Below are positions 1,157 through 26,821 of a stretch of 30,371 nucleotides of DNA, one piece after another (the first letter of the stretch is position 1; each line of letters starts with the position of its first letter). This DNA is from Prochloraceae cyanobacterium PL24a_bin.78 (GTDB lineage: Bacteria; Cyanobacteriota; Cyanobacteriia; Cyanobacteriales; JANQIW01). The stretch covers positions 1 through 30,371 of the forward strand of contig JANQIW010000095.1 of assembly GCA_028281945.1 (NCBI GenBank), given 5' to 3'. The translations under genes were made by a program, and so were the position numbers. The notes below the pieces were generated by a model. It was not told the origin of the DNA, made no database searches, and was given only the letters and a program-made list of their open reading frames with translations.

Positions 1157-1480
1157 TTATGGCGAGCTACTATTCTGTTGAGTTTTTGGCAGAGAACTGG
1201 TCAAAGCTCGATGCACAGCTTCCGGCTCATGATCGATAACTTTGAGAAAATTCCTTGATGGGCCCGATGGCACACGGCGGCCTTGCTCCCAATCTTGGAG
1301 GGTTCTTAGGGAAACCCCAAAATAATCAGCAAAGACGTTCTGACTCATATTGAGCTTAAGACGGATACGCCGGACATTAATTTCTTCGGGGATATGAACA
1401 ACAGAGCCGTTGTCTTCTCCTCTAGCAAAGGCAAGTGCTTCTTCCATTCCCTTGATGAGACTTTCACCTAATTCGCTCAT
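1157..1480 (-). CDS. XRE-family HTH antitoxin (HigA-like)
   Basis: 107 aa. 'MSQNVFADYFGVSLRTLQDWEQGRRVPSGPSRNFL' is a classic XRE/Cro HTH with the 'Q.WE.G...P' signature. Its start overlaps the upstream toxin stop by 4 nt (ATGA). Local GC is about 45-47% against a background near 30%. Confidence 0.75.
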   Translation of the reverse strand: MSELGESLIKGMEEALAFARGEDNGSVVHIPEEINVRRIRLKLNMSQNVFADYFGVSLRTLQDWEQGRRVPSGPSRNFLKVIDHEPEAVHRALTSSLPKTQQNSSSP

Positions 1481-1821
1481 GTATTTTTCCTCCTATACAT
1501 TTCAACAATACTACTAGACAAAGTTTTCAGGATCTTCTTTTCCTTGTCTGTCATGTTTTCTTTCTGGGTTTTTGCATAAACACTCATCAGAAATACAGGT
1601 ATATCAACGCCGCTGAAAAAAGTAATGACGCGGTATCCACCACCTTTTCCCTTACCTTTGGCAGCTACACGCACTTTTCGCATACCGCCGGTACCGACTA
1701 TTTCCTCCCCTATATCTGGATTAGCCGCAATCAAATCGATAATGCTTTCACGCTCATCATCGGATATACCTAATTTCTTGGCACACCTTATAAATTCGGG
1801 CATTTCAACAACACTTTGCAT
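1477..1821 (-). CDS. RelE/ParE-superfamily toxin (HigB-like; toxin-first order with an XRE antitoxin)
   Basis: 114 aa. 'MPEFIRCAKKLG...GGYRVITFF...VFLMSVYAKTQKENMTDKE' matches HigB/RelE-like addiction-module killer proteins. The gene order (toxin upstream, HTH antitoxin downstream, 4-nt overlap) is the HigBA arrangement. The true start may be the internal Met at 1801-1803 (MPEF...). Confidence 0.75.
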   Translation of the reverse strand: MQSVVEMPEFIRCAKKLGISDDERESIIDLIAANPDIGEEIVGTGGMRKVRVAAKGKGKGGGYRVITFFSGVDIPVFLMSVYAKTQKENMTDKEKKILKTLSSSIVEMYRRKNT

Positions 1822-6069: not shown

Positions 6070-6105
6070 ATCAGAAATCTAACAGAAATCTAACAGAAAT
6101 TTAAT
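6070..6105. repeat. Tandem 11-nt repeat (TAACAGAAATC x3) in the convergent intergenic spacer
   Basis: 'cagaaatctaacagaaatctaacagaaatttaatc' lies between the 3' ends of the DUF547 gene and the RNB gene. Confidence 0.6.
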
Positions 6106-8017
6106 CAAAAGAGGAATAAGCAAAAGTTTGTTTTAACCTCTTTAATAAACTAGAAGCTGCCAATTGTTTAGCTTCTTTTTTGCTTTTACCATTACCTTTA
6201 TTGGTAAAAGTTTTATCTTCTAAAATAAGAGTTACTATACATTGAAAACCATTTGCTAATGACGAATATTTATAGTTAGGCACAGGCCAACTTAACTGTT
6301 GAGAAAGATTATTTAAAATAGCAATAGAATTGTCAGAAGATTCAAAAATTTCGTTAATATATTCTTCATTAAATTCTTCTCCCCAAAAATAATCTTCATC
6401 TTCAATCCATTCTTCTTCTTCCTCAATTTCGTCATTTTGTATTGCTAGCAAATTATTAGTATTGTCTGTATTTTTTTCTATTTTTGATGTATTTTGAAAA
6501 TTGAAATTTCTTTCTTCAATTGTTACTAATTCCTCTTCACAAAATGCCACTAACCATTGAGAAGCTGCGGATTGTTTAGCTTCTTTTTTAGAATTAGCAA
6601 TTTCAGGATTAAAAGTAGTTTCATCATCTACCACTAACCATGCAGCAAAAGGAGGTGCAGATAATTCTTCATAAATAAAATCTACTTGTTTGCCCATTTG
6701 TCTAGCAATTGAATTTAAAGCTTGGAGAAAATCTGAAGGATTTTTGTCCCCCCAATCTTTTAATTCTTCGAGTTTTAATTCATGCTTGAAAATGATTAAA
6801 GCGACATCTTTAAGAGTTAAAGTATTTTTATTAAATCTATTAATTATTTCAGGTAATAGTTTACCAATATTCTCATCATTAGCTACCTCTAAAAGTTTAG
6901 TAAATTCTTTAGCTGATAAACGAGAATAAATAGATTCATCTTGCAGATTTTGATTAATTATAGCTTGTGATTTTGCTTTCATAATCTCTTTTTTAGTTTG
7001 ACGAGTTTGTTCGCGATACTCATTAAGATGGTTGGCTATTTTTTCTAATTCTTCTTGAGTATATGGAATATTTTCTCCTTTAATTATAGACTTAATAATG
7101 CGATGATTAACTATATCTGCATATCTTCTAATAGGAGAAGTAAAGTGACAATAACTATCTAAATTTAAAGCAAAATGTCCTTCACAATTTTCTTGATAAA
7201 CCGCAGGTTTAAGATGGGATTGTAAATATTTTCTAATTAATTCGCTACTACCTAAATCTCTTAAACTTTTGATAAAAGTGTTTCTATCTTCAGGAATTTC
7301 TCCTGCTTTATGATTGCGATACATTCCTAGCTGGGTTTTTTCTAATAAAAAATTAGCAATAGCCATATTAGCTAAAATCATAAATTCAGCGATAATTTGC
7401 TGACTATTATATTGAATTTCTTTAGTAATATTTCCTTCTTCATCTAAGTTTAAATCCCCAATAGACATTGAACCAATTGCCCCTCTATCTTGACGAAGAT
7501 AATTTAATTTTTTAGCCCAAATTTCGCAATATTTTAAAAGAGGATATAATTGTTTTGATGGAGAAATTAAAGTTAAATCTGCCTCTTCATAAGCAAATCT
7601 TTTAATACTAATTAATAAGGTTTCTTGGATTTCAGTATTAACAATATTAGCACTAGAATCTAAAGTTATTTTTACAGTTAATGTAGGGCGATGTTTTCCT
7701 TCTAAAAGACTAGTTTTTTCTTCTGACAAGATTCTGGGAAACATAGGAATATTTCCTTTAGCTAAATAGACAGTTTCCACTCTTGTTAATGCTTCTTTGT
7801 CTAAGGCACTATTTTTATGAACATAAGCAGAGACATCTGTGATATGAATACTTAAAATTGCACCATTATTAATAATTTCAATCCAAATAGCATCATCTAA
7901 ATCTTTACTACTACTAGAGTCAATGGTAAAACCACATACCTGAGGGCGGCTTGAATAATCTATTGTAACTGTATTAGCTTCTGTTAGGACTTCTCTGGTA
8001 AATATTTTTTTAAACAT
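6101..8017 (-). CDS. RNB-domain 3'-5' exoribonuclease (RNase II/R family) with two C-terminal dsRNA-binding motifs and no CSD or S1 domains
   Basis: 638 aa. The RNB catalytic signature 'SSSKDLDDAIWIE...IHITDVSAYV' sits at the very N-terminus, so no cold-shock domains precede it. The C-terminus carries two DSRM units: '...PSDFLQALNSIARQMGKQVDFIYEE...SKKEAKQSAASQWLVAF' and '...NSIAILNNLSQQLSWPVPNYKY...KSKKEAKQLAASSLLKRLKQ'. An acidic linker (EEEEEWIEDEDYFWGEEF) separates them. Confidence 0.8.
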   Translation of the reverse strand: MFKKIFTREVLTEANTVTIDYSSRPQVCGFTIDSSSSKDLDDAIWIEIINNGAILSIHITDVSAYVHKNSALDKEALTRVETVYLAKGNIPMFPRILSEEKTSLLEGKHRPTLTVKITLDSSANIVNTEIQETLLISIKRFAYEEADLTLISPSKQLYPLLKYCEIWAKKLNYLRQDRGAIGSMSIGDLNLDEEGNITKEIQYNSQQIIAEFMILANMAIANFLLEKTQLGMYRNHKAGEIPEDRNTFIKSLRDLGSSELIRKYLQSHLKPAVYQENCEGHFALNLDSYCHFTSPIRRYADIVNHRIIKSIIKGENIPYTQEELEKIANHLNEYREQTRQTKKEIMKAKSQAIINQNLQDESIYSRLSAKEFTKLLEVANDENIGKLLPEIINRFNKNTLTLKDVALIIFKHELKLEELKDWGDKNPSDFLQALNSIARQMGKQVDFIYEELSAPPFAAWLVVDDETTFNPEIANSKKEAKQSAASQWLVAFCEEELVTIEERNFNFQNTSKIEKNTDNTNNLLAIQNDEIEEEEEWIEDEDYFWGEEFNEEYINEIFESSDNSIAILNNLSQQLSWPVPNYKYSSLANGFQCIVTLILEDKTFTNKGNGKSKKEAKQLAASSLLKRLKQTFAYSSFD

Positions 8018-8025
8018 AAATTAAA

Positions 8026-9393
8026 TTAATAATTGTTATTAGGAATTTCTAGATTTAAAAATTTAGTTAATTCTGGTTTAAATAAAAGCTTAATTTGTCC
8101 TGTAGGCCCATTTCTTTGTTTAGCAATAATAACTTCAGCGATTCCTCTATCTGGAGTATCTGGATTATAATATTCATCTCTATATAACATCATTACTAAA
8201 TCTGCATCTTGCTCAATAGATCCTGATTCTCTTAAATCTGATAACATCGGACGTTTATTATTTCTTTGTTCCACAGCCCGACTTAATTGTGAAAGGGCAA
8301 TGAGAGGAACGTTTAATTCCCTCGCTAAACCCTTTAAAGCACGTGTTATTCTAGATAATTCTTGTACACGGTTATCACTAGAACTGCCTTCCATCAACTG
8401 TAAATAATCTAATAAAATTAAACCTAATTCCTTTCTTTGGTCTGATTTTTGGTCTGATATTAAACGACGTAAATCCGATCTCATTTGCATCACAGTCAAA
8501 CTAGCATTATCATTAATATAAATAGGAAGGTCTGCTAAAGCTCCCACTGCTGCACCCAAAGGATCTAATTCCATTTGAGTTATGCGACCCGAACGTAACT
8601 TATTACTATCAATCCCTGTTTCGCCAGACAATAAACGGACAGATAATTGTTGTTTTGACATTTCTAAACTAAAGATTGCCACCATTAATTTCTCCTCAAG
8701 AGCAACATGATGGGCTATATTTAGGGCAAAACTAGTTTTTCCCATACTAGGGCGGCCAGCAATAATAATTAAATCCGATCGTCCTAAACCATTAGTCCTA
8801 GCATCTAAATCATAAAAACCAGTATTGATTCCGGGATTGCCAGTTTTGTTATACAACTTTTCAATCTCTTGAAAAGCATCAATCACCGTTTCAGAAATAG
8901 GGATTAAACCTTCTTGAGGACGCTTTTGAATCAGGTTAAAAATAGCTTTTTGAGAACTATTCATAACGGATTCAATTTCTTGAGTTGTATCATAACCTAA
9001 TTTTATAATTAGATGACCAGCTTTAATTAATTCACGACGTAAGAATTTATCCATTACTAAAGGGGCATGATGTTCAATTGTTATTGCTGAAACTGTACGA
9101 TCTACTAATTGTGTTAACTTTGTAGTTCCGCCTACTTCTTCTAAAAAACCTCGATCTAATAACCAAGTAGTTACTGTCATTAAATCAGTGGGTTTTCTTT
9201 GATTATATAAATATATTGCCCCTTCATAAATTTTTTTGTGAGCTTGGATATAAAAAGCTTCAGGATTGATTAAATTAACAACTCTTCCCATGGCTTCAGG
9301 ATCCAATAAAATACCTCCTAAAATCGCCTCTTCAGCATCAATATTTTGTGGTGGAAGAGAGTTTTGGGAAAATTGTGGTTTAAATTCTACCAT
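8026..9393 (-). CDS. dnaB: Replicative DNA helicase DnaB (intein-free)
   Basis: 455 aa. N-terminal DnaB domain 'NIDAEEAILGGILLDPEA'. Walker A 'IIIAGRPSMGKTSFALNIA'. Its stop lies only 8 bp upstream of the RNB gene start, so co-transcription is likely. Confidence 0.95.
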   Translation of the reverse strand: MVEFKPQFSQNSLPPQNIDAEEAILGGILLDPEAMGRVVNLINPEAFYIQAHKKIYEGAIYLYNQRKPTDLMTVTTWLLDRGFLEEVGGTTKLTQLVDRTVSAITIEHHAPLVMDKFLRRELIKAGHLIIKLGYDTTQEIESVMNSSQKAIFNLIQKRPQEGLIPISETVIDAFQEIEKLYNKTGNPGINTGFYDLDARTNGLGRSDLIIIAGRPSMGKTSFALNIAHHVALEEKLMVAIFSLEMSKQQLSVRLLSGETGIDSNKLRSGRITQMELDPLGAAVGALADLPIYINDNASLTVMQMRSDLRRLISDQKSDQRKELGLILLDYLQLMEGSSSDNRVQELSRITRALKGLARELNVPLIALSQLSRAVEQRNNKRPMLSDLRESGSIEQDADLVMMLYRDEYYNPDTPDRGIAEVIIAKQRNGPTGQIKLLFKPELTKFLNLEIPNNNY

Positions 9394-10293
9394 ATTAAAA
9401 ATAATAAATTTTTATTATTAAGATAGTAACCAAGATTATTATCATTAATCCCATTTACTAGCTATATATTATATAGTTTATTATTTTAACTTAAAAACAT
9501 GAGACTACTTTAGTTTAATTTTTATCTTCAGCTAAGGAGATAATTGTATCTAAATTTATTATTGTATCTTAAATTGTCTTTTGATAAAATCTGTTAACAC
9601 TATCAATAATAACCATAAAATTATGATGTTTTATCCTCGTTTTTAAAACAAAATTTTCCTCTTTAATTTTTCTTTCAAGGCTGTTATAATCTATTCTTCA
9701 AGTTAAGAATTGTATGTATCATTATATTTCTACTGATTTTTGGAGTAATATTAATTGTTATTATCTTAATTCTTGTTACCAAAAATGTCGAGAAAATGCC
9801 TCTGTTAAATTTTTCTATAAAAGTTAAAATTAAAATTAGACGGAAATAAATCCTACGCAAGAAATAAACCAAACTTTTTTTTTGAAAATTTGTTATATCA
9901 AATGGTCTTTAACAACGATAGAGTTAAAAAATCCCAAATCCAGGATAATTAACCAAAATTTATTCTCCCCATTCTTCCCATTTTCTCCATTCTCCCCTCA
10001 ATATCTATCACTATTAAAGAGAAACGATATTAACCATGTGATGAATATGAGTTTTTGGTTGGCTTGCTTGTTTGATTTGTGATTACTAATTATGATTTTT
10101 AAATTTGATTAACCTGACTCACAAAAATTTTTACAAAAAAAAGATATAGATAAAAATACATTTATTCTTATCTTTTTATGTTTATAGATTTTAAATAACC
10201 TAAATCAATTAGAAACTTAATATTTTTCAGGTAAATTTGGGAAAAGAAAAAACTCGATTTGATCATCGACTTATGACTTAAATACAAATTAAA

Positions 10294-12144
10294 TCAAGAT
10301 TCTCCTTTAAGCAATAATTCCATTCCTTTTGCCGTTTCGGCTTGAATTTTTAATTCATTACCAATGTCATCAGTAAGTTTTTTTAACTCTTCTCCTAAAC
10401 CTTGTGGCAATAAAACTTGTGTACTTTGAGCCGTTGCCAAAATCCCTGCAACTTCCAATAAACGTTGCAATAAAAGATTACGAGCTTCTTCGCATTTTTC
10501 TAAACTTTTCAACCAACCTTGAGGTAATTGATTGTATTGTAAAGACTGAGTTTCTAAATAAGATAAAGTTCGATCTAATCCATCTAATTGAATTGCTGCA
10601 TCGGCAGATACTTTAAGCAAATTAGATACATATCCCACTATTTCTTCTCGTTGTTCGGGAGTTTTTCTGGTATCAAACCAAATTTGACTAATGCGGACAA
10701 TATCGCTAAATAAATTACGGGCTGTAGTAGAATTTAAATCTTCCATAATTTCTACCACAATTTCTTGGAGTTTGGAGGGTAATTTTGATTGACTAGGCCC
10801 CGGAGTAAGTAATGGTTTTCCTATAGATTGATGAGCCAACAATAACAATCCTATGGCAAATAGCCCACTAAAACCTCCACTGACAAAGGATCCTACTCCC
10901 AAAATCGCCCCTGTTAAACCGTAAAAATTCTGAGGAATTGCTTTCCAAAGTTGATTTTTACTTAAAGCACGTACATAAATTTGTTTTTTAGCTAATTCTT
11001 CTACTACTGAATTAACTTGAGAGTCATCGAGACACACTAATGCTTTAGTTCCTGAAATAGTTTCTTTTAAACCCTCTCGTTGTGGGGATAAATTAAACAA
11101 CGCTCTAATTTTATCTAGGTTTTTTTCTTGTTTATCTTTATCTCCGTGAAGAGATTCTAACAGCAAATAGGTGGAAGGTTTAGAGACTATTCCTTTGCAT
11201 CCAGGACATATAGAAATTCCTAAAAAGGTTTCTGTTCCACAAACTAGACATGAATGATTGGATTTCTTTAAAGATTTAGCCATTCCACTCTTATCTATCA
11301 AAGTAATTCCTTGGCTTTTATTTTCAGATAATGCTTCCTCAAATCTAGCTACACTAGAAAAGCGATCGTTAGGATTAGCACAAGTAGCTTTAGCAATTAC
11401 TTCATCCAACCAAAAAGGAACATCTAGGCAAATATCTTTGACATGACAGCCTAAAGCTGGAAACTTTCCATCTAATGGTCGGTAAATTTCACCTGTAAGG
11501 GCAAAATATAAAGTCATTCCTAATGCAAATATATCGCCTTTAGAATTAATTTCTTTGCCATCTAGTACTTCTGGTGGAGTATATAATCCATCAAACAACC
11601 GCTTTCTTTCATTTTTACTTAGTTGATGTTCTATTCTGATAGAGCCAAAGTCACTTAAACGAGAATAACCATTGGATTCTAGAAAAATATTATTAGGTTT
11701 AATATTTCCGTGAATTATACCACGTCTATGAGCGGCGGCTAAAGCAGAAGCTATTTGTATACCAATAGAAACTACTTTATCTGAGGGTAAAACTCCTTCT
11801 TGTTTGATTATGGTTTGCAGGTTAGTCCCATCAACTAACTCCATAATTATGAGACTGCGATCAACTAAATCCATAATTATGAGAGTTTGGGAGTCAAAAT
11901 CTATATAATCGTAAGTTTGGATAATGTGAGGATGATTAAGAGAACGAGCTGCTATAACCCTTTTCTTAGTTTTTTCTTTACCTATTTTTGCTAAAATAGG
12001 AGGAGGTATTAATTGTTTTACAGCCACATTTTGTTTCAATTGAATGTCTTCGGCTTTGTAAACAACAGAATACCTGCCTCGTCCAATCTCCTTGATAATG
12101 GAATAACGGTCTTGTATAACTGTTCCGGGAGCAAAATAATTCAT
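10294..12144 (-). CDS. Membrane-anchored Hanks-type Ser/Thr protein kinase homologue with HGN replacing the catalytic HRD (predicted pseudokinase), a zinc ribbon, one TM helix and a helical C-terminal domain
   Basis: 616 aa. Gly-loop 'IGRGRYSVVY', beta3 Lys 'VAVKQL', DFG 'SDFGS', 'YTPPE' and 'DIFALGMTLY' are all present. The catalytic loop reads 'IIHGNIKPNNIFL' where HRDLKPxN is expected (DNA GGAAAT where CGNGAY is expected). After the kinase come 'CLVCGTETFLGISICPGCKG' (CxxC...CxxC), a TM segment 'LTGAILGVGSFVSGGFSGLFAIGLLLLA', and about 190 aa of helical C-terminus. Confidence 0.8.
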   Translation of the reverse strand: MNYFAPGTVIQDRYSIIKEIGRGRYSVVYKAEDIQLKQNVAVKQLIPPPILAKIGKEKTKKRVIAARSLNHPHIIQTYDYIDFDSQTLIIMDLVDRSLIIMELVDGTNLQTIIKQEGVLPSDKVVSIGIQIASALAAAHRRGIIHGNIKPNNIFLESNGYSRLSDFGSIRIEHQLSKNERKRLFDGLYTPPEVLDGKEINSKGDIFALGMTLYFALTGEIYRPLDGKFPALGCHVKDICLDVPFWLDEVIAKATCANPNDRFSSVARFEEALSENKSQGITLIDKSGMAKSLKKSNHSCLVCGTETFLGISICPGCKGIVSKPSTYLLLESLHGDKDKQEKNLDKIRALFNLSPQREGLKETISGTKALVCLDDSQVNSVVEELAKKQIYVRALSKNQLWKAIPQNFYGLTGAILGVGSFVSGGFSGLFAIGLLLLAHQSIGKPLLTPGPSQSKLPSKLQEIVVEIMEDLNSTTARNLFSDIVRISQIWFDTRKTPEQREEIVGYVSNLLKVSADAAIQLDGLDRTLSYLETQSLQYNQLPQGWLKSLEKCEEARNLLLQRLLEVAGILATAQSTQVLLPQGLGEELKKLTDDIGNELKIQAETAKGMELLLKGES

Positions 12145-12156
12145 AGTCGAGTGAAT

Positions 12157-12777
12157 TTAGAACCGTTGCTGATTAAAAGCTTCAATATCTTCTAAAACTG
12201 TTAGAGCATTATTACGCCAACCATCATTATTGGAGTAAATACGAAGGAATCTTTCTAGATTTATTTCTGCTTCATAATAAGAACCTATCAGATATTCAAA
12301 CATACCAGCATGGTATAAAGCTATGTAATTGTTTGGTTGATATTCTAACACTAAATTCATAATAGGCCCTGCTGATTCTTCATCTCCAGCATCGGCGATG
12401 GGACTCGCTAGGTTAAATATTACTGAAGCTGCATATTCTTTATGTCTGTAACATGGTAATTTTTCGATTAATTCTCTAGCCTCATCAATTTTCCCTGCCA
12501 AAGCGTAGCATCCAGCGGCATATGCTCTGCCTTCAATGGTATTGGGGTGGGGGTTAGAAAGGATTGCTGTTGTTACTTCTACAGAATTGCATTGAGGTTT
12601 GATGGAATTAAACCATTTTTCCCCTCTTGAGATATTTCTGGAGTTGTCTCGATGGGATGATATTTCTTGCTTAGTATAGTTTGATCTTGTTTGTGTTTCT
12701 GGGATAAAAGGGCGAGCCGCTAATATCAATGTACAAAGTCCGAGATAGGTAAATCCTAATTTATAAAGTAAACGCAT
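12157..12777 (-). CDS. Secreted TPR-like / helical repeat protein
   Basis: 206 aa. Signal-peptide-like N-terminus 'MRLLYKLGFTYLGLCTLILAA', then Ala/Tyr-rich helical repeats ('AYAAGCYALAGKIDEARELIEKL', 'ALYHAGMFEYLIGSYYEAEINLERF'). Ends 12 bp upstream of the kinase start. Confidence 0.5.
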   Translation of the reverse strand: MRLLYKLGFTYLGLCTLILAARPFIPETQTRSNYTKQEISSHRDNSRNISRGEKWFNSIKPQCNSVEVTTAILSNPHPNTIEGRAYAAGCYALAGKIDEARELIEKLPCYRHKEYAASVIFNLASPIADAGDEESAGPIMNLVLEYQPNNYIALYHAGMFEYLIGSYYEAEINLERFLRIYSNNDGWRNNALTVLEDIEAFNQQRF

Positions 12778-12855
12778 AATTTTAATTGGCTGATTTTATT
12801 GCCGGGAAATAGCTTTTTTTTAGTATAGTCTATTTCTACCATAAGATAGTCTTTG

Positions 12856-15486
12856 TTAGTTCAAGTTCATTTTTTTTGTTATTTTGGGGACTATTTTTAA
12901 AATTGGTTTAGCATCAACTCCTAGATTTCTAGCTTCTTCAAATAATTTCTTGACAAGTTGACTGTATTCTTGGCGAGTTATTTTTTCTTTGGATGCTTCT
13001 GACATTAGTCTTGCTGTATATTCTTGCAATACTACTACTTTGTCTGAGGGTAAATCTGAGCTTATGTTTTCTACTATTTGAGCTAATCCTTCTAAGGCGG
13101 TATCTTTTTCATAGCGATTGGCTATTTCTATCATTAATTTGGCAAACCTAAAAAATAGAGGTTTAAATTTTAAACCTTCAAGCATTGTACAACTTGCTTT
13201 TGGTGGGCAAATTTCACTGAGGATATTTTGATCTACGTCTTCAACTCCTATGGCTAAAAAGTTTAGTTTCTCTTCTGCAAAAGCTTCTTGAATTTTTTCT
13301 GCTGATTGTTGCCAGTTGTCATCAAGAGTACTACCTGCAATGGTGATGATCCAAGGTTGATAGTGTTGAATATTTTGCTCTTTAAAAATCTTTTGACGAT
13401 CGTCAATTACCTTAAGTGCTAATTCTAATCCTTCTCCTATGGCTGTGGATCCTTCTAATTCGACTTCAGTGAGGTTATAGTTTGCATTATCAGTAAAAGG
13501 TTTAATGGTTTTTACTGGTGTACCAAAGGTTATAATTGCTACTTCGATACACTTATTAGTATTTGGATCATTGCTTAATTGTTCTTTAAATTTATTGATC
13601 CCTTTGATTAATTCTTCCTTATACTCTGTTGACATGGAATCAGACGTGTCTATCAGTAATACTACTAAACACTTAGGTAAAGCTTCTTTTAGTCGAGGCT
13701 GAGTATATTCTCCGTTGCTTGGTAATTGGGATTGATTTGATGAAGTATCAAGCATTGGGGTAACAAATGCTTCCAAAATTTCCGAGCGTCCACCATCAGA
13801 GTTTACTAAAACATGGGGGAGTTGAATATTTGACCAATTATTGATTTTTAGGTAATTAAAATAATTATGAACACCACCAAGAGCTTGAATTTTAGATTGA
13901 ATTGATTCTGCATCTGCTTGATCTTGATACCATTGTGCTTGTGCTTGATTTTTGGCAATTTGTATATTGTCTTGAGATTCATATAGTTTCTTTTGTCGAT
14001 CTGTTTGAAATTCAATTAATTCCTCTCTTTGTTTTGTGAAGGCTTCTTGTTCTATCAGTTTTCTACGTTTTTCTTCATTTTCGATTTTAACTTGATAGCT
14101 TTCTGTTTTTTGTCTTTCTATTTCTCGCTCAGTTAAAATCTTCTCAAGTTCCTCTGGTAAATCTATTTCATTAATTAATGTATTAACACCTATAATACCA
14201 TATGACTTTAAGCTTCTTTTTATATATCCTTTTACATTTTGTGCTATCGTATTTCTCGCAGAATGAAAGTCTATAGCTTTGAATTCTTGTGCTGCACTCC
14301 TAAAATAATAACTTATATTTGGTTCTAAAACTTTTTTAATCAAATTTCTCATGCGATCATATGGCTTGACTATATATTCTTTACTATTTTCAACTTTTTC
14401 TAAATCTAATCCTTGTGAATTAACAGAGACAATACTAGCAATCATCTTAGGAGCATTTTCTGGTAGTATTTGAATAATCTGGGTAAGTTCGATGTAAAAT
14501 TCAAATCCATCTTTGGAACGAAGGTTTAAAGGTTCGAGATTTAAATCATAGTTCATTGCAGTAGACTGAGACTCTTCTTTTTTTGACCAATCTAATGCTA
14601 TTTCGTTAGTAGGAACAAGATTTATCTTCTGTAGATAAGTATTTATAGGATATTTATTAGGTCGTAAAGGTTCTTTATGTATTCCTTTATATTCTTTATC
14701 TACTAAATACTCTTCACCATTTTTTAATTCTTTATCTTTTTTTGTCGTCTCCTTACAAGGAGGAGTTTTACCAACATAAGATATCACAACTCCTACTGTT
14801 CCAGTAGGAATTACTGTTAATGGAACTTTTTCTATTTTAACAAACCAAGGATTTAAATACCAGTTACCCACAGGAATTATTTCTTCTTGTAAACCTTTAC
14901 ACCCACCATTATCAATAAATGCTTGGGCATCTTGAAATTTGTTATGATCTTCTATACATGGACCTGCTATTTCGCCTTCTGGAATTGGTAGACCATCTTT
15001 AGTTGTAACAATGCCAATCATATCTGTTTCTATATGATAGACCTTTAAATCTTCTGGATTTACATTATGTTCTTTAGCATTGGCAGAAGTGATTACAGTA
15101 AAAAGTTTGGTATTAATTCTGTATGTTCCTGCTCTTAAGATTCCTAATTGTTCCCCTTTTTCCCCACCATTGGCTAAGAAAGCAACTCCATCTTGAAAAT
15201 CACTACAGGGAACTATTCTTCCTAAATTTTGTGTATAACTTTCTGCCTTTGTTTCTCCATCTTTAGCTACTACTAAACCAATTTCTCCTTGAGGAATTTC
15301 TATGGCAGGTACTATCTCAACTTCCATAAGCCAAGGACTATAAAAATGTGTACCAGGTGGAAGAATCTCTGCTTGATAACCAGTTTCCCCATTAGTAGCA
15401 ATTTGTTTTCCTGGTGGTAATTTAGAGCCAACTTTTTTATACTTAATTCCTACTTGGTTTGGTCCAATTTCAATGGTTTTTAACAT
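12856..15486 (-). CDS. SPFH/flotillin-like protein with triplicated N-terminal 'IPxGEIG..KDG' modules and a coiled coil, fused to a C-terminal von Willebrand factor A (vWA) domain
   Basis: 876 aa. SPFH-like 'GPNQVGIKYKK...ILPPGTHFYSPWLMEVEIV'. Three repeats: 'IPQGEIGLVVAKDG', 'IPEGEIAGPCIEDH' / 'IGIVTTKDG', 'IPTGTVGVVISYVG'. Flotillin-type EA-rich coiled coil 'ERQKTESYQVKIENEEKRRKLIEQEAFTKQREELIEFQTDRQKK'. vWA with a MIDAS 'LLIDTSDSM' (DxSxS), '...GSTAIGEGL' and 'IITIAGSTLDDN'. An extra helical tail of about 130 aa follows. Confidence 0.7.
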   Translation of the reverse strand: MLKTIEIGPNQVGIKYKKVGSKLPPGKQIATNGETGYQAEILPPGTHFYSPWLMEVEIVPAIEIPQGEIGLVVAKDGETKAESYTQNLGRIVPCSDFQDGVAFLANGGEKGEQLGILRAGTYRINTKLFTVITSANAKEHNVNPEDLKVYHIETDMIGIVTTKDGLPIPEGEIAGPCIEDHNKFQDAQAFIDNGGCKGLQEEIIPVGNWYLNPWFVKIEKVPLTVIPTGTVGVVISYVGKTPPCKETTKKDKELKNGEEYLVDKEYKGIHKEPLRPNKYPINTYLQKINLVPTNEIALDWSKKEESQSTAMNYDLNLEPLNLRSKDGFEFYIELTQIIQILPENAPKMIASIVSVNSQGLDLEKVENSKEYIVKPYDRMRNLIKKVLEPNISYYFRSAAQEFKAIDFHSARNTIAQNVKGYIKRSLKSYGIIGVNTLINEIDLPEELEKILTEREIERQKTESYQVKIENEEKRRKLIEQEAFTKQREELIEFQTDRQKKLYESQDNIQIAKNQAQAQWYQDQADAESIQSKIQALGGVHNYFNYLKINNWSNIQLPHVLVNSDGGRSEILEAFVTPMLDTSSNQSQLPSNGEYTQPRLKEALPKCLVVLLIDTSDSMSTEYKEELIKGINKFKEQLSNDPNTNKCIEVAIITFGTPVKTIKPFTDNANYNLTEVELEGSTAIGEGLELALKVIDDRQKIFKEQNIQHYQPWIITIAGSTLDDNWQQSAEKIQEAFAEEKLNFLAIGVEDVDQNILSEICPPKASCTMLEGLKFKPLFFRFAKLMIEIANRYEKDTALEGLAQIVENISSDLPSDKVVVLQEYTARLMSEASKEKITRQEYSQLVKKLFEEARNLGVDAKPILKIVPKITKKMNLN

Positions 15487-15583
15487 GATACCCTTCCTAA
15501 TGTTTTGTTAATATTTATCGTGATTTTCTTGAAATTTTACGCATTTAGTTTTAATGTTTTGATCAATTAATGTTAGTTAATAA

Positions 15584-16579
15584 TCAATTTCCATCAATTC
15601 TGCATTTTTCACATCGAGATAAAAAGCCTTTAAAATTCTCTCTCCAAATTCCTAACTCTTCCTCTTCATCTGGATCCTTAGCTATACTGAATTGTAATGA
15701 AGGTAGATGTCCTCGTCTTGCTTGTAAATCAAAGGTGAAATCTTCATGTTTGAGCCATTCTTCATTTTGATACCAACCTACTAGTTCACCGAATTGATAG
15801 TAAAGTATGGGATTAAATTCTCCTTTTTTTCCTCCGATACTCAACCAAAGATCTCTTTGAACACTAAAACCAAAATGCCCTTTTGATTTATTTAACCAAA
15901 GATTATTGATGATTTTGAGGTCTTTACAAGGAAAATTTTCTATATCTTTAGGCTTTAACCAACCTTCTTTCTCTCTTTTGGCTACTTTTAGGATAACTTT
16001 TGCTGTTTCTATATCTGCTTCTTTCCATTGTCCTGCTTCGAGATATTCTCGTAATTGTTCATAATTGCCGATTATTTTGTCTTGATTAGGTTTCCTATAA
16101 GTATCTTGATGTGGTTGATATCCTATAGTTTCATTGGGCATCTCTAAAATTTCTGCGTCATACTGGATTCTTTGATTTCTAGTAGAATGAGAGAAGTTTT
16201 CAATTTCGTTAATAAGATGATCTACTTCAAACAATTCATCCCTCAATCTTTGAGACGAAGAAATTTGAGGATTTGTCGTTCTTGGAGGAAGATAATTCCT
16301 ATCCTGAAAATTCCCATAACTATCATATTCTGGAGGATATTGTCTGGATTTTGTGGATGAATCTTTTGTTTCTGCTTCTTCTGCCATTTCTGCTTCTAAA
16401 AGCTGGATGTCTTTTTCGCATTCTTCTATTTCTTCATCTAATTCTTCTATTTCGATTTTTAAGTCTCCAATTAATTTCAGATTAGATCTATTTTTGGCAA
16501 TATCTTGTTTATATTGAGCACGTCTTCTTTTTAAAGTATCCCTCGTTTTTTTGAGAATTTCCAAAGTTTCTTTTGACAT
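15584..16579 (-). CDS. Coiled-coil protein with a C-terminal GUN4-like (porphyrin-binding) domain
   Basis: 331 aa. The N-terminal ~70 aa is a charged coiled coil (LKIEIEELDEEIEECEKDIQLLEAEMAEEAE). C-terminal 'LREYLEAGQWKEADIETAKVIL...DLKIINNLWLNKSKGHFGFSVQRDLWLSIGG...FGELVGWY...RRGHLPS' matches the GUN4 domain signature. Confidence 0.7.
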   Translation of the reverse strand: MSKETLEILKKTRDTLKRRRAQYKQDIAKNRSNLKLIGDLKIEIEELDEEIEECEKDIQLLEAEMAEEAETKDSSTKSRQYPPEYDSYGNFQDRNYLPPRTTNPQISSSQRLRDELFEVDHLINEIENFSHSTRNQRIQYDAEILEMPNETIGYQPHQDTYRKPNQDKIIGNYEQLREYLEAGQWKEADIETAKVILKVAKREKEGWLKPKDIENFPCKDLKIINNLWLNKSKGHFGFSVQRDLWLSIGGKKGEFNPILYYQFGELVGWYQNEEWLKHEDFTFDLQARRGHLPSLQFSIAKDPDEEEELGIWRENFKGFLSRCEKCRIDGN

Positions 16580-17022
16580 TTATTATCTCCAAATAGTTAT
16601 GTTATCGTGATTTTATCCAACTCCTCGATGGATAAATTTAAAATAGAATCTAGATACAATCTAATTTTAGCTGAAAAAATAGTCATTTAATAAAAGAGAA
16701 ATAAATTAACGATCGTCAAAATAGTTACAACCTTATAGATTCATTTCCATCGATAAAAGAGTGTCTATTTTTGTTGCTTTAATTAATTCCAAGAGTGTTA
16801 ACTCACCCATCTACTATTAATATAATAGGATAAACATGATATAAATAATTATTTATCATCAAGAAAGATCGATGGAGAATAACTTTGAAAAATCCATTAT
16901 CCTATCCAACAAAAGCCTTAAAGTAAGTTATAATATTTAGTATATAGTTATCCTAATATATCAACAGGATCATAACTTCTCTGTTATCAAATAATGTGTC
17001 TATTGAGTATAGTAATAAAACT

Positions 17023-17051
17023 TTGACATTTTGAAAAAAAACTGTTATAAT
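17023..17051 (+). promoter_or_regulatory. Perfect sigma70-consensus promoter TTGACA-N17-TATAAT
   Basis: TTGACA at 17023-17028, a 17-nt spacer, TATAAT at 17046-17051. It lies about 280 bp upstream of the pentapeptide gene start. Confidence 0.5.
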
Positions 17052-17263
17052 AGGATTTAAGACAAGGAATTAAGGGTTTTTGAAATGAAAAACTTTAGGA
17101 ATCCACTCGACCATATAGACAAGCGTATTTTCAGTATTACAAAAACTGTTGTTTAAAAAAAGTTATACATCAAGTCAAACATTAAACGAACACATAAACA
17201 AACATTAGTAAGAGAGAATTAAAAATAAGGAACAGGACTTACGGAAAAAGTAAGGCTAAATAC

Positions 17264-17292
17264 TATATCTAGGGTATTGTACTCTAGATATA
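17264..17292. promoter_or_regulatory. Perfect 9-bp inverted repeat TATATCTAG-N11-CTAGATATA (candidate operator)
   Basis: Found by reading the sequence. It sits about 40-65 bp upstream of ATG 17329. A third CTAG ('tctatctagaaa') lies just downstream. Confidence 0.45.
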
Positions 17293-17328
17293 ACTTTCTA
17301 TCTAGAAAATCAACCCAGAATTAAGGTA

Positions 17329-17826
17329 ATGAATGATCAAGAATTAACAGAATTAATTAATAAACAAATCGTAGCTGAAATCCGAAATAGATATATACAA
17401 GGAGAAAGAGATTTTCAGGGAGCACAATTACAAGGAATTAACTTAAGTGGATTGAATTTAGCTGGAGTAGATTTAAGAGGAGCAAACTTATCAAAAGCTA
17501 ATTTATCAGGAACAAATTTAAGGGGAGCAAAATTAGAAAAAGCAAATCTAAGATCAGCGAAATTAAATAAAACTTGTTTAGTAGAAGCTAATTTAGTCAA
17601 AACAGACTTAAGAGATGCTAATTTGATCGAAGCAAAATTAAATCGGGCAAATCTTAGAGAAGCTAACCTTAACAAGACTTTATTAATTGAGGCAAATCTT
17701 GATGAAGCTAATCTACAAGAAACACAACTGATTGGCTCTTACTTAATCAGAATTAGTGTAATGGGAGTACATTTTCAGGAAGCAGAATATCAAAAGCAAA
17801 TTCAATTACTGCAAAAAATTGTTTAA
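17329..17826 (+). CDS. Pentapeptide-repeat protein
   Basis: 165 aa with about 20 tandem A(D/N)LxX pentapeptides ('GANLSKANLSGTNLRGAKLEKANLRSAKLNKTCLVEANLVKTDLRDANL...'). Confidence 0.85.
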   Translation: MNDQELTELINKQIVAEIRNRYIQGERDFQGAQLQGINLSGLNLAGVDLRGANLSKANLSGTNLRGAKLEKANLRSAKLNKTCLVEANLVKTDLRDANLIEAKLNRANLREANLNKTLLIEANLDEANLQETQLIGSYLIRISVMGVHFQEAEYQKQIQLLQKIV

Positions 17827-17934
17827 AACTTAAAGTTATACCTAAATCAAACCTAAAATAGGCCTGAAGACAAACATCATGACTTGATAATAAAAGGGAA
17901 GAAAGAAATAAAATCAAAAAAATCAAGAAAAATC

Positions 17935-18180
17935 ATGAACTATACTGTTTTAGATAAGATTAATGAGAATCAAATTACGACTCAAGTACAAATTGAATTA
18001 CGTCAAAGAGATAGAAATTTTCAAGAAGTAGGATTGTTAGGAGTTAATTTAGAAGGATTAGATTTAAGTCAAATAGATTTAAAAGAAGTAAAGTTGTCTA
18101 ATGGAAAACTGATAAAAGTGTTATTGATATTTTTTATTTATATAGTTGTTCTTGGATATTCTTATTCTAAATGTGTTTGA
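17935..18180 (+). CDS. Truncated pentapeptide-repeat paralog with a hydrophobic C-terminal anchor
   Basis: The N-terminus 'MNYTVLDKINENQITTQVQIELRQRDRNFQEVGLLGVNLEGLDLSQIDL' aligns with the N-terminus of the 17329 protein ('MNDQELTELINKQIVAEIRNRYIQGERDFQGAQLQGINLSGLNLAGVDL'). It ends in a TM-like tail 'LIKVLLIFFIYIVVLGY'. Start chosen at the internal Met. No clear SD. Confidence 0.4.
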   Translation: MNYTVLDKINENQITTQVQIELRQRDRNFQEVGLLGVNLEGLDLSQIDLKEVKLSNGKLIKVLLIFFIYIVVLGYSYSKCV

Positions 18181-18243
18181 AGTTATTGATTGATTTTTAT
18201 TATATATTTTGATGTATTTAAACAGAAGATAGAGGGGGTTGAT

Positions 18244-18444
18244 ATGAAAGAAGTGTCTTCACAAATTATTAGTTTAGTTGAAAGTCTAAGAGATAAACAA
18301 CAAGATAGATTAACTATTACAAGTCATCTGGCTGATAAAATTCATAAAGTGCAAATCTTACTTGAAGAAAATTCCATTTTAGAGGCAAAAAAAATCATTG
18401 CTGATGCCTTACAAGAGTGTGAAGAGTTAATTAGAATAGTTTAA
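18244..18444 (+). CDS. Small helical protein (~66 aa), paralog A of an uncharacterised family
   Basis: Start taken at 'MKEVSS' preceded by the strong SD 'agagggggttgatATG'. Paralogous to the 18784 ORF. Confidence 0.45.
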   Translation: MKEVSSQIISLVESLRDKQQDRLTITSHLADKIHKVQILLEENSILEAKKIIADALQECEELIRIV

Positions 18445-25690: not shown

Positions 25691-26821
25691 TTAATTAGCT
25701 TGATAAATTTTTAATCTTTCTTGATATTTAGCGACTAAAGACTTCATTGATTTGACATTTTGGTTATAATACCCCTTAGATAGATGAGAGTAACAAGTAA
25801 GGGAAGCCCAAACACGACAAGATTTAATAATAGCTTCTTTCAAATTACCTTGTTTTAATTTTCGCAGAGCACCTATCTCTTCTAATTTAGAAATAGCCCA
25901 TTTATCTTGTTCTTGAGGTGCAAAAGAAGTCATATTTTTGGCATTAAAATCCAAAATTTGATAGCGACCAAAAGCAGTAGAACAAGTTTTTTTCCCACTT
26001 TCGGTGATATAGGTAATACATTTTTCGGGATGAGTGGTTAAATCATCAACTATTTCCCCACCAAATAAAGTTTTATAACCTAAAGGATGGAGGGTTCCTT
26101 CTGCCCATGCAATGGTATCTAAAAATGCTTTTTCTTGGGGAGACAAAGAAGATAAAGCAGTAGTAGCTTTAGCAGGATTATATTTAATACTTATTTTCTC
26201 TTGATAAACTGGTTCTACCTGTTGAGTTTTTTGTTCTAATTTAGGATGAGGATTACGCTCGGATGATAGTGAGTTTAAACCAAAAGCAATACTAAATACA
26301 GAAGCCACCGCCATTGACATCATGCCAAGAGAAATTACCTTTTTTTTCTTTTTAAGATTTCTTTTATTGACTTTTGCTAAATCCTCTGGAATAGTAATAA
26401 CTATAAATTTGCCAGAATTTAAATTTTTCATAAAGAAACGTTTAGATCCTTGTAAATCTCGAGTATCCTTTAAGAGGAAATCTAGAATATTACCTTGAGA
26501 ATCTATTGCTTTATAAATATAGATATCTTGACCTTGAATAACTATTTTTCTTTCAACAACTTGCCAATCGGAAATTTTCTTGGCTTCATACTTCATTTTC
26601 TTAACTTGGGAAGAATAACGTCTAACTAAGGAAAAGAATGTGACACGATCGAGATCAAATCCCCTTTGAGACATGATCTTCTCAATTTTACGGTAGTTTT
26701 TATCGTAGTAAACATACCAGGCAACGCAAAGTAAGAGCATCTCTTCTTTTGTTTCTTTCCAAGAGCTTTTCAACTGAGCTTGGAGTTTATGATTATATTT
26801 ATTATTTAAAGTTGAACTCAT
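25691..26821 (-). CDS. Chimeric ORF: degenerate IS6-family transposase N-terminal fragment fused in frame to a SAR-type (signal-anchor) lambda-R-like lysozyme / lytic transglycosylase
   Basis: Residues ~28-140 'LLLCVAWYVYYDKNYRKIEKIMSQRGFDLDRV...WQVVERKIVIQGQDIYIYKAIDSQGNILDFLLKDTRDLQGSKRFFMKNL' align with the IS26 transposase block 'ILWAVRWYCKYGISYRELQEMLAERGVNVDHST...WHMDETYVKVNGRWAYLYRAVDSRGRTVDFYLSSRRNSKAAYRFLGKIL', but DETY reads VERK. A weakly hydrophobic A/G/S-rich TM 'MMSMAVASVFSIAFGL' follows. The C-terminus 'KAFLDTIAWAEGT...GYKTLFGGE...HP...CSTAFGRYQIL...AIIKSCRVWASL' matches lambda R endolysin 'KAFLDMLAWSEGT...GYDVIVGGE...HP...STGAGRYQLL...AIDRCSNIWASL'. Confidence 0.65.
   Translation of the reverse strand: MSSTLNNKYNHKLQAQLKSSWKETKEEMLLLCVAWYVYYDKNYRKIEKIMSQRGFDLDRVTFFSLVRRYSSQVKKMKYEAKKISDWQVVERKIVIQGQDIYIYKAIDSQGNILDFLLKDTRDLQGSKRFFMKNLNSGKFIVITIPEDLAKVNKRNLKKKKKVISLGMMSMAVASVFSIAFGLNSLSSERNPHPKLEQKTQQVEPVYQEKISIKYNPAKATTALSSLSPQEKAFLDTIAWAEGTLHPLGYKTLFGGEIVDDLTTHPEKCITYITESGKKTCSTAFGRYQILDFNAKNMTSFAPQEQDKWAISKLEEIGALRKLKQGNLKEAIIKSCRVWASLTCYSHLSKGYYNQNVKSMKSLVAKYQERLKIYQAN

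Follow-up and report, generated by a model that had tools for sequence, protein, structure and literature searches.

Introduction

Conflict systems of multicellular bacteria are among the closest known counterparts of the genes reported here. Kaur, Burroughs, Iyer & Aravind (2020; eLife, PMC7159879) listed GUN4 and Band7-like domains among the components of these systems, noted fusions of GUN4 to kinases, caspases, trypsin and TIR, and described a constant core with swappable enzymatic parts as their organizing principle. The present analysis concerns a cluster of four genes on contig JANQIW010000095.1 of Prochloraceae cyanobacterium PL24a_bin.78 (GenBank assembly GCA_028281945.1), which was analyzed over its whole length of 30,371 nucleotides, referred to as the window. 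The genes encode a GUN4-domain protein, a protein combining SPFH and vWA domains (SPFH-vWA), a TPR-like protein and a membrane Ser/Thr-kinase homolog. A preliminary description had regarded them as one system. We consider it probable that two modules of two genes each, both conserved on their own, adjoin one another in this cluster, namely GUN4/SPFH-vWA (module A) and TPR/kinase (module B).

The NTP-dependent conflict systems, in particular the ternary VMAP/vWA-MoxR systems, share vWA, Band7-like, GUN4, Ser/Thr kinase, caspase/CHAT, trypsin, TPR and zinc-ribbon parts with the genes described here. Furthermore, both the systems of Kaur et al. (2020) and the GUN4-SPFH cassette are enriched in filamentous or colonial cyanobacteria, and the closest homologs of the window cassette, found in Moorena and in metagenomes, adjoin a DO-GTPase cluster. 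No MoxR AAA+, VMAP, iSTAND, DO-GTPase/GAP1 or EACC1 component was detected in the cluster or the window, and a text search of Kaur et al. (2020) and its 2021 sequel did not retrieve a pair of GUN4 and multi-repeat SPFH proteins. Domains of the vWA type are also part of the ArnA (FHA-ZnR)/ArnB (vWA) pair, which acts with ArnC/ArnD in Sulfolobus, and of bacterial circuits composed of vWA, FHA, Ser/Thr kinase and PP2C. In contrast to these, the window lacks FHA and PP2C, its kinase is predicted to be inactive, and its vWA domain belongs to an SPFH fusion protein.

SPFH proteins form cage or ring assemblies such as HflK/C-FtsH, prohibitin, erlin, stomatin, flotillin and QmcA-YbbJ, which resemble the window protein in having a Band_7 core followed by a long helix. 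Unlike them, the window protein has no transmembrane (TM) or hairpin anchor, carries four additional N-terminal beta-modules and a C-terminal vWA domain, and is partnered by a GUN4-domain protein instead of NfeD or FtsH. This partner contains a clear C-terminal homolog of the core of Gun4, the porphyrin-binding Mg-chelatase cofactor. Canonical Gun4 has an N-terminal helical domain, whereas a coiled coil is found at this position in the window protein and enzymatic heads at other loci; next to it in the genome lies an SPFH gene instead of a chelatase gene.

Organization of the cluster

All four genes are located on the minus strand in the order GUN4, SPFH, TPR, kinase, with intergenic gaps of 97, 78 and 12 nt, and are bordered by long AT-rich spacers (Table 1). 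Open reading frames (ORFs), coordinates and spacers matched the preliminary description. The domain types proposed there were also confirmed: Pfam identified GUN4 (PF05419, E=1.3e-38) and Band_7 (PF01145, E=1.2e-20, above cut-off), as well as VWA (E=9.5e-10), VWA_2 (E=3.2e-10) and Pkinase (E=2.4e-36). Pfam matches to TPR were below the curated cut-offs, and this assignment was provided by an AlphaFold2 (AF2) model.

Table 1. Features of the four-gene cluster and its flanks (window positions; residues in amino acids, aa) and N-terminal heads of GUN4 proteins at SPFH loci.
Feature	Residues	Positions or loci	Strand	Basis and remarks
Gene for GUN4-domain protein, 331 aa		15584-16579	-	ORF call, Pfam; module A gene 1
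GUN4 core	172-295	15695-16066	-	Pfam, homology to solved Gun4 cores
Gene for SPFH-vWA protein, 876 aa		12856-15486	-	ORF call, Pfam; module A gene 2
Four tandem homologous beta-modules	~1-300	14587-15486	-	hhalign; fourth runs into Band_7 core
Band_7/SPFH domain	257-473	14068-14718	-	Pfam, profile search, AF2 model
Single helix of ~90 residues	445-535	13882-14154	-	AF2 model, Foldseek; equivalent to SPFH/vault wall or cap helix
vWA domain	605-770	13177-13674	-	Pfam, AF2 model; preceded by disordered linker, aa 550-600
Four-helix region after vWA, C-terminal	774-872	12871-13167	-	AF2 model
Gene for TPR-like protein, 206 aa		12157-12777	-	ORF call; module B gene 1
Gene for membrane Ser/Thr-kinase homolog, 616 aa		10294-12144	-	ORF call, Pfam; module B gene 2
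30-nt in-frame tandem duplication (LIIMDLVDRS / LIIMELVDGT), beta5/hinge		11830-11889	-	Repeat family D2, 87% identity
HGN codons in place of HRD	145-147	11704-11712	-	Comparison with orthologs
CxxC-x10-CxxC zinc ribbon	299-316	11197-11250	-	In nearly all full-length orthologs
Hydrophobic stretch of ~31 residues	408-438	10831-10923	-	One TM helix or hairpin
AT-rich divergent spacer, 749 nt, 26.3% GC		16580-17328	.	Without ORF of >=30 aa
AT-rich spacer 3' of kinase gene, 900 nt, 22.7% GC		9394-10293	.	Low-complexity ORFs only
GUN4 head: Ser/Thr kinase		L018, L019, L021, L024, L035, L068		Pfam
GUN4 head: caspase (Peptidase_C14)		L011, L013		Pfam
GUN4 head: CHAT		L010, L012, L083		Pfam
GUN4 head: trypsin (Trypsin_2)		L065		Pfam
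GUN4 head: coiled coil or no Pfam match		window, L043, L002-L008, L022, L080, Microcystis

The GUN4-SPFH cassette in cyanobacteria

The N-terminal SPFH module has thousands of relatives, as revealed by a homolog search. A scan of species-representative genomes for SPFH yielded 80 loci from Cyanobacteria, Myxococcota, Bacteroidota, Acidobacteriota and Anaerolineae; the ORFs of all these loci were extracted and searched with the window proteins. A GUN4-domain gene was located directly upstream of the SPFH gene, on the same strand, in about 20 of the 27 evaluable cyanobacterial loci. This number was curated by hand, with the near-identical loci L002-L004 counted once, L091/L092 also counted once, and loci at contig edges excluded. 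The upstream GUN4 ORF was present at L002-L008, L010-L013, L018, L019, L021, L022, L024, L035 and L043, furthermore at L068, L080, L083 and at the Microcystis loci L091/L092. At L065, the GUN4 gene is convergent and located downstream of the SPFH gene. Genera harboring the cassette are Nostoc, Calothrix, Tolypothrix, Scytonema, Anabaena, Cylindrospermum, Nostochopsis, Iningainema, Moorena, Okeania, Microseira and Microcystis; it was also identified at several metagenome-derived loci that carry a family-level name or are unclassified, and spans Nostocales, Oscillatoriales and Microcystis. De novo clustering of all neighboring ORFs did not reveal any other partner family recurring to a comparable extent. 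Full-text searches found no publication linking GUN4 genes with SPFH genes.

The GUN4 domain is always C-terminal in the upstream proteins, and the N-terminal head differs between loci (Table 1). In the window protein, a highly charged coiled coil (aa 1 to ~75) is followed by a low-complexity linker and the C-terminal GUN4 core. This core is homologous to the solved Gun4 structures 1Z3X (E=1e-16) and 1Y6I (E=6e-15) and has kept the FGFSVQR..W and RGHLP signatures of Gun4. No hydrophobic or TM segment was found in the 331-aa protein, and its coiled-coil N-terminus has no homolog at other GUN4-SPFH loci. Small coiled-coil proteins (c8/c30) are encoded upstream of GUN4 elsewhere. Fusion with such a protein was rejected as the source of the window coiled coil (hhalign probability 0.4%), and neither the upstream spacer nor the remainder of the window contains a remnant of c8/c30.

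The SPFH proteins vary at their C-terminal end. A vWA tail was found in the window, at L002-L009 and in several longer database homologs; most SPFH relatives are devoid of vWA. Other tails comprise a zinc ribbon in the Nostocales kinase variant, CshA-like repeats, and the membrane protein DUF4407, which is either fused to the SPFH protein or encoded by the next gene. Additional neighbors of SPFH genes are kinase-WD40 proteins and, downstream in Nostocales variants, FHA-kinases; hence, the absence of FHA mentioned in the preliminary description is true for the window but does not extend to the wider family. Altogether, four unrelated Ser/Thr-kinase architectures occur beside SPFH genes, namely the kinase-GUN4 fusion, the FHA-kinase, the kinase-WD40 protein and the TPR-coupled kinase of the window. 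The closest relatives of the SPFH-vWA protein, from Moorena and metagenomes, share 46-48% identity with it, and no TPR or kinase gene is located downstream at their loci.

Several cassettes are embedded in characteristic neighborhoods. At four of the vWA-containing loci (L002:478-19085, L003, L004 and L005:8453-22330), the cassette encodes a 231-aa coiled-coil protein, GUN4 and SPFH-vWA and lies between ParA/ParB plus Tn7-like TnsA/TnsB/TniB/TniQ genes on one side and a TraG/VirD4 gene on the other. Beyond TraG/VirD4, these loci encode a GTPase-like protein, two DO-GTPases, large unknown proteins and a VWA_2 protein; this neighborhood looks like a DO-GTPase conflict system on a mobile element. 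At L010:1587-8365 and L012:3845-11757, the genes after CHAT-GUN4 and SPFH encode a dCache_3 sensor, a homolog of Cys-loop ligand-gated channels (Neur_chan_LBD) and one more CHAT protein, an unusual setting that combines signaling proteins with proteases. A four-gene variant that recurs in Microcystis, Anabaena and Cylindrospermum (L091:4637-9829; L092:3285-9829; L022; L080) consists of c30, GUN4, SPFH and DUF4407, with c30 being a family of small helical proteins of ~159 aa whose C-terminus carries the conserved motif KLKVxLPxIP...YExE. The Moorea protein P0117 is a fusion of SPFH and DUF4407. Genes of the Uma2 family (restriction-endonuclease-like) are located beside loci encoding caspase- or CHAT-GUN4 and SPFH (L013:5226-5816; L083:7467-8153).

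The TPR-kinase pair

The 206-aa protein begins with a hydrophobic helix (aa 2-20), which may be a signal peptide or an anchor, followed by a disordered linker and an all-alpha repeat domain. Its AF2 model (predicted local distance difference test, pLDDT, 91.7) contains nine helices in aa 51-205, and a structure search with this model retrieved TPR proteins only (E ~5e-3). The family comprises proteins of ~195 aa (144 matches), in which two Cys residues are invariant throughout.

Of the TPR homologs on long contigs, the five closest ones (45-53% identity) were examined for their genomic contexts, which are unrelated. In each case, the TPR gene was directly followed by a gene for a full-length kinase ortholog of 604-627 aa; the junction matched the 12-nt gap of the window in two contexts, and the genes overlapped by 4 nt in two others and by 26 nt in L088. 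These kinases (L087, L088, L173-L175) align collinearly with the window kinase over the full length (30-41% identity), including the CxxC-CxxC ribbon, the hydrophobic stretch and the helical C-terminal domain. No GUN4 or Band_7 gene was present within 7-10 kb in any of the five contexts according to the precomputed Pfam annotation of called genes. The TPR-kinase orthologs thus occur without GUN4 or SPFH genes nearby, which argues against the four genes being one conserved system. The preliminary description had suggested a gene-neighborhood comparison and had named orthologs scattered over different loci as evidence against a single system. Such a comparison upheld the co-occurrence of GUN4 and SPFH genes and placed the TPR-kinase orthologs at different loci; hence, linkage was retained for the GUN4-SPFH half of the proposed system and had to be given up for the TPR-kinase half.

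An exhaustive HMMER search identified ~65 full-length cluster representatives of the TPR-coupled kinase. When only the C-terminal half of the kinase was used in a word-indexed homolog search, none had been returned; in view of the HMMER clusters and of direct comparison this was a false negative, and negatives of this search type are unreliable for divergent helical domains. A metagenome scan with the kinase ortholog alignment gave 80 loci, which were discarded as non-orthologous; the match covered only aa 7-272 at ~30% identity, and the automatically chosen peptide patterns were generic kinase motifs. In more distant TPR relatives, the next gene encodes an unknown protein of 196-202 aa and not a kinase. 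The TPR-kinase pair is an independently conserved envelope signaling pair of many bacteria and is probably subject to translational coupling.

Architecture of the SPFH-vWA protein

An AF2 model of the SPFH-vWA protein was built on 15 homologs (pLDDT 76.6). From the N-terminus, it shows a beta-rich region, the SPFH alpha/beta core, an uninterrupted helix, a disordered linker, the vWA domain and a helical C-terminus. A beta-module had been described as triplicated; the module itself was confirmed, but four copies instead of three were recognized when sub-alignments were compared by hhalign (s2-s3 98.6%, E=8e-16; s1-s3 95%; s2-s4 95%; s1-s4 58%). No TM segment was found in the protein, as no 19-residue Kyte-Doolittle average reached >=1.6. 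The metal-ion-dependent adhesion site (MIDAS) attributed to the vWA domain is present in part: DTSDS (613-617) and T681 are conserved, but the canonical fifth residue, an Asp after beta4, is replaced by 'IAGST', with D722/D723 located nearby, so that the site is not complete. A phmmer search of the vWA domain against the PDB, performed for this reading, gave only a spurious match to a designed repeat protein.

The sequence profile of the protein matches HflC and stomatin. In a Foldseek search, the top match of the model was the Major Vault Protein (MVP, which forms the shell of eukaryotic vaults; 9r86, E=3e-11, ~695 columns), followed by prohibitin, HflK/C, erlin, stomatin and QmcA cages (E 1e-8 to 1e-10). 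MVP and the window protein have in common the order of tandem beta-repeats, SPFH-like shoulder and long cap helix as well as a similar taxonomic spread. MVP, however, has nine repeats as compared to four, and assembly of the window protein into a closed shell is hypothetical. The vault-associated proteins PARP4 and TEP1 also contain vWA domains. True bacterial MVP homologs were reported in Moorea, Saprospira and myxobacteria (bioRxiv 10.1101/872010) and constitute a set different from the SPFH-vWA proteins.

Degeneracy of the kinase

The 616-aa protein is composed of a kinase domain, the CxxC-CxxC zinc ribbon, an alpha/beta linker, the hydrophobic stretch and a helical C-terminal domain. Its description as a catalytically degenerate kinase was correct. 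HGN is found instead of the catalytic HRD, the alphaC motif reads KKRV with the alphaC Glu replaced by Arg as compared to RREV in most relatives, and the beta3 Lys is separated from the HRD position by 105 residues, whereas this distance is 95 residues in nearly all relatives. HGN is not a trait of the family, since HRD is kept in 72 of the 74 related kinases with a readable motif. The 10 extra residues originate from the tandem duplication in the beta5/hinge region, which is absent from all orthologs. Both the duplication and the alphaC change recur in P0293, a 118-aa fragment of a 91%-identical relative that stops short of the HRD position; hence, neither change is an assembly error, and both are real and stable. 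The degeneration falls precisely in the lineage in which the kinase adjoins module A.

As judged from its sequence, the window kinase is a lineage-specific pseudokinase in which the catalytic Asp, the Arg of HRD and the Glu of alphaC have disappeared. VAVK with the beta3 Lys, DFG and the second catalytic-loop Asn are retained, which makes nucleotide binding conceivable. HER3, a pseudokinase devoid of the catalytic Asp, has HRN at this position. Pseudokinases of the HER3 type share with the window kinase an Asn in place of the catalytic base, and they likewise keep the beta3 Lys, DFG and the second catalytic-loop Asn; the window kinase additionally lacks the alphaC Glu and contains the beta5/hinge duplication. 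HGN instead of HRD was also observed in P0319 (GILHGNLKPENVL), a second and distant ortholog of the TPR-coupled kinase, which suggests recurrent conversion to the same pseudokinase state.

Outside the kinase domain, the CxxC-CxxC motif and the hydrophobic stretch of the preliminary description were recovered. A single TM helix with an extracytoplasmic domain is less certain: two orthologs contain a 7-residue insertion in the middle of the hydrophobic stretch, which together with its length of ~31 residues is compatible with a hairpin and leaves the extracytoplasmic position of the C-terminal domain uncertain.

Interpretation and alternative explanations

For module A, all solved SPFH assemblies and MVP suggest by analogy that the SPFH scaffold could form a ring or cage that displays its tail, with the long helix mediating oligomerization. 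The GUN4-tagged partner might be recruited to, or regulated (gated) by, this assembly, with GUN4 serving as tetrapyrrole sensor, docking adaptor or both. Both variable positions are non-enzymatic in the window, namely the coiled-coil head and the vWA tail. A constant core with variable enzymatic heads, together with mobile-element and DO-GTPase neighbors, fits a stress, cell-death or conflict signaling assembly. The kinase of module B may act at most as pseudokinase scaffold or receptor. A bolder version, which we regard as a long shot, would have the SPFH protein form a vault-like or half-vault cage with GUN4-tagged effectors (caspase, CHAT, trypsin, kinase or, in the window, a coiled-coil adaptor) as clients that are released or activated when GUN4 binds free tetrapyrroles arising from photo-oxidative damage or phage infection, a captured TPR-pseudokinase pair providing the link to the membrane in this lineage; if true, this cage would be a cyanobacterial counterpart of the inflammasome or the vault compartment.

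If the GUN4-SPFH cassette is a real functional unit, it would provide a first genomic partner and a testable function for the large uncharacterized flotillin-like proteins of cyanobacteria, a reason for the fusions of GUN4 to caspases, CHAT proteases, trypsins and kinases, and a genetically tractable bacterial system with a vault-like arrangement of parts. Every single domain was already known, and the general logic fits the published conflict-system framework; new are the linkage of SPFH genes to GUN4 proteins whose heads vary, the vault-like part order of the scaffold and a natural pair of active and dead kinases. This pair, formed within one family by the degenerate kinase and its orthologs with HRD, is useful for the study of pseudokinase evolution, and its value is increased by P0319, which apparently reached HGN independently. 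Tight spacing and shared orientation made two modules look like one; only the comparison of neighborhoods told them apart.

Several observations weigh against this interpretation. Six cyanobacterial SPFH loci are without a GUN4 gene, and none of the non-cyanobacterial SPFH loci has one. PADLOC has no model for the SPFH-vWA protein, no viral or defense-island annotation ties the window locus to defense, and the cluster has ordinary chromosomal surroundings (DnaB, RNase II, CobQ, PPK2). Pfam Vault or MVP_shoulder matches were absent from the SPFH-vWA protein at E<=0.1, and TM-scores of its model to MVP were low (0.13-0.24), owing to the elongated shape of the chain. Hence, true membership in the MVP family was rejected and the protein is described as having an MVP-like order of parts; in the predicted model, the resemblance to vaults is one of architecture and not of shown homology. 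Finally, the adjacency of modules A and B may be functional rather than incidental, given the repeated occurrence of kinases next to SPFH genes.

With respect to defense, a scan of viral contigs for the SPFH family gave no relatives. PADLOC matches of the kinase to PD-T4-6/MADS6 were not taken as defense assignments because they span the generic kinase domain only, nor was an NCBIfam match to MAD6, which scored 131.8 as compared to a cut-off of 460. The PADLOC kinase-GUN4 model PDLC04062 matches only the GUN4 domain of the window protein. One paper on phage-resistant Nodularia reports that a GUN4-kinase gene and a CHAT gene were mutated, which is suggestive but tangential.

A functional adjacency is the content of the first alternative, according to which all four genes form one system. 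The TPR-kinase pair would have been captured as a membrane sensing or anchoring arm replacing an FHA-kinase or kinase-WD40 protein, and the captured kinase would have become a pseudokinase docking either on the MIDAS site of the vWA domain or on the coiled coil of the GUN4 protein. The short internal gaps without a terminator-like site are in line with this idea. Kinase genes make up an estimated ~1% of the background, and four unrelated kinase architectures beside SPFH genes are far above this level; functional capture of module B therefore stays a live rival. Furthermore, an external partner would make sense as both the GUN4 head and the SPFH tail of the window are non-enzymatic, and the kinase has an intact ORF with conserved zinc ribbon, TM stretch and C-terminal domain, its degenerate features being stable in the 91%-identical relative. 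However, the four-gene combination was seen in this contig only, the TPR-kinase orthologs are located elsewhere in all five contexts, the closest SPFH-vWA loci are without TPR-kinase, and three losses of catalytic residues plus an insertion are equally expected from relaxed selection. On balance, we rate a single system as unlikely, albeit not so unlikely as to be set aside.

The second alternative takes the GUN4-SPFH unit for a housekeeping organizer of membrane microdomains in tetrapyrrole or chlorophyll metabolism and not for a conflict or cell-death module; by analogy to HflK/C-FtsH, a flotillin-like scaffold would concentrate porphyrin-handling proteins or protease clients. The close homology of the GUN4 core to the Mg-chelatase cofactor, the classic role of SPFH proteins as membrane scaffolds (the Synechocystis flotillin homolog Sll1021 being uncharacterized) and the chromosomal housekeeping genes around the window cluster agree with such a function. 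Neither of the two proteins, however, has a TM segment or lipid anchor. Heads of the caspase, CHAT, trypsin and kinase type are typical of signaling or cell death and not of biosynthesis. The cassette has a patchy distribution, varies in composition and is at times located on mobile elements, and most SPFH partners lack vWA. We regard a housekeeping role as improbable.

Decay of the kinase gene in a meaningless adjacency, the cluster being a by-product of rearrangement in a gene-sparse AT-rich region, would account for the unique arrangement, the three catalytic-site losses with the in-frame duplication and the long non-coding spacers throughout the window, but is quite improbable given an ORF intact over 616 codons, non-catalytic domains 30-41% identical to orthologs, derived N-terminal features kept in the 91%-identical relative, and the independent HGN of P0319, which suggests a tolerated functional state.

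Genomic context of the cluster

The GC content of the whole window is 31.9% and thus exceeds that of both spacers flanking the cluster. Searches for ORFs, Rfam families and repeats revealed no credible ORF, Rfam family or meaningful repeat in these spacers. The 749-nt divergent spacer would have to contain the promoter of the cluster. A promoter scan gave fewer promoter-like sites than shuffled controls, and the promoter/terminator scan gave nothing in the three internal gaps. A perfect sigma70 consensus (TTGACA-17-TATAAT with TG) is located in the divergent spacer at 17023-17051. Within the 900-nt spacer 3' of the kinase gene, the 9-mer ATTCTCCCC occurs four times at 9962-9997.

The remainder of the window is ordinary chromosome with long non-coding spacers all across it and genes for DnaB, an RNase II-dsRBD fusion, glycosyltransferases, PPK2, CobQ and a RelE/HTH pair. 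The fusion protein (6101-8017, minus strand, 638 aa) combines an RNase II (RNB) domain with two dsRNA-binding (dsrm) motifs, and its gene starts 8 nt downstream of the DnaB gene (8026-9393). Divergent from the cluster, at 17329-18444 on the plus strand, a 165-aa pentapeptide-repeat protein is encoded, followed by ORFs of 98 aa and 84 aa; the latter has a weak match to CTD11 of ABC-3C conflict systems (E=9e-4, below cut-off). The only mobile-element gene of the window encodes a DDE_Tnp_IS240 transposase (25691-26821, minus strand) and is not adjacent to the cluster. A toxin-antitoxin pair at 1157-1821 (minus strand) adjoins a tRNA gene (2020-2093); the coding sequences of its RelE-family toxin (114 aa) and its HTH_3/MqsA-like antitoxin (107 aa) overlap.

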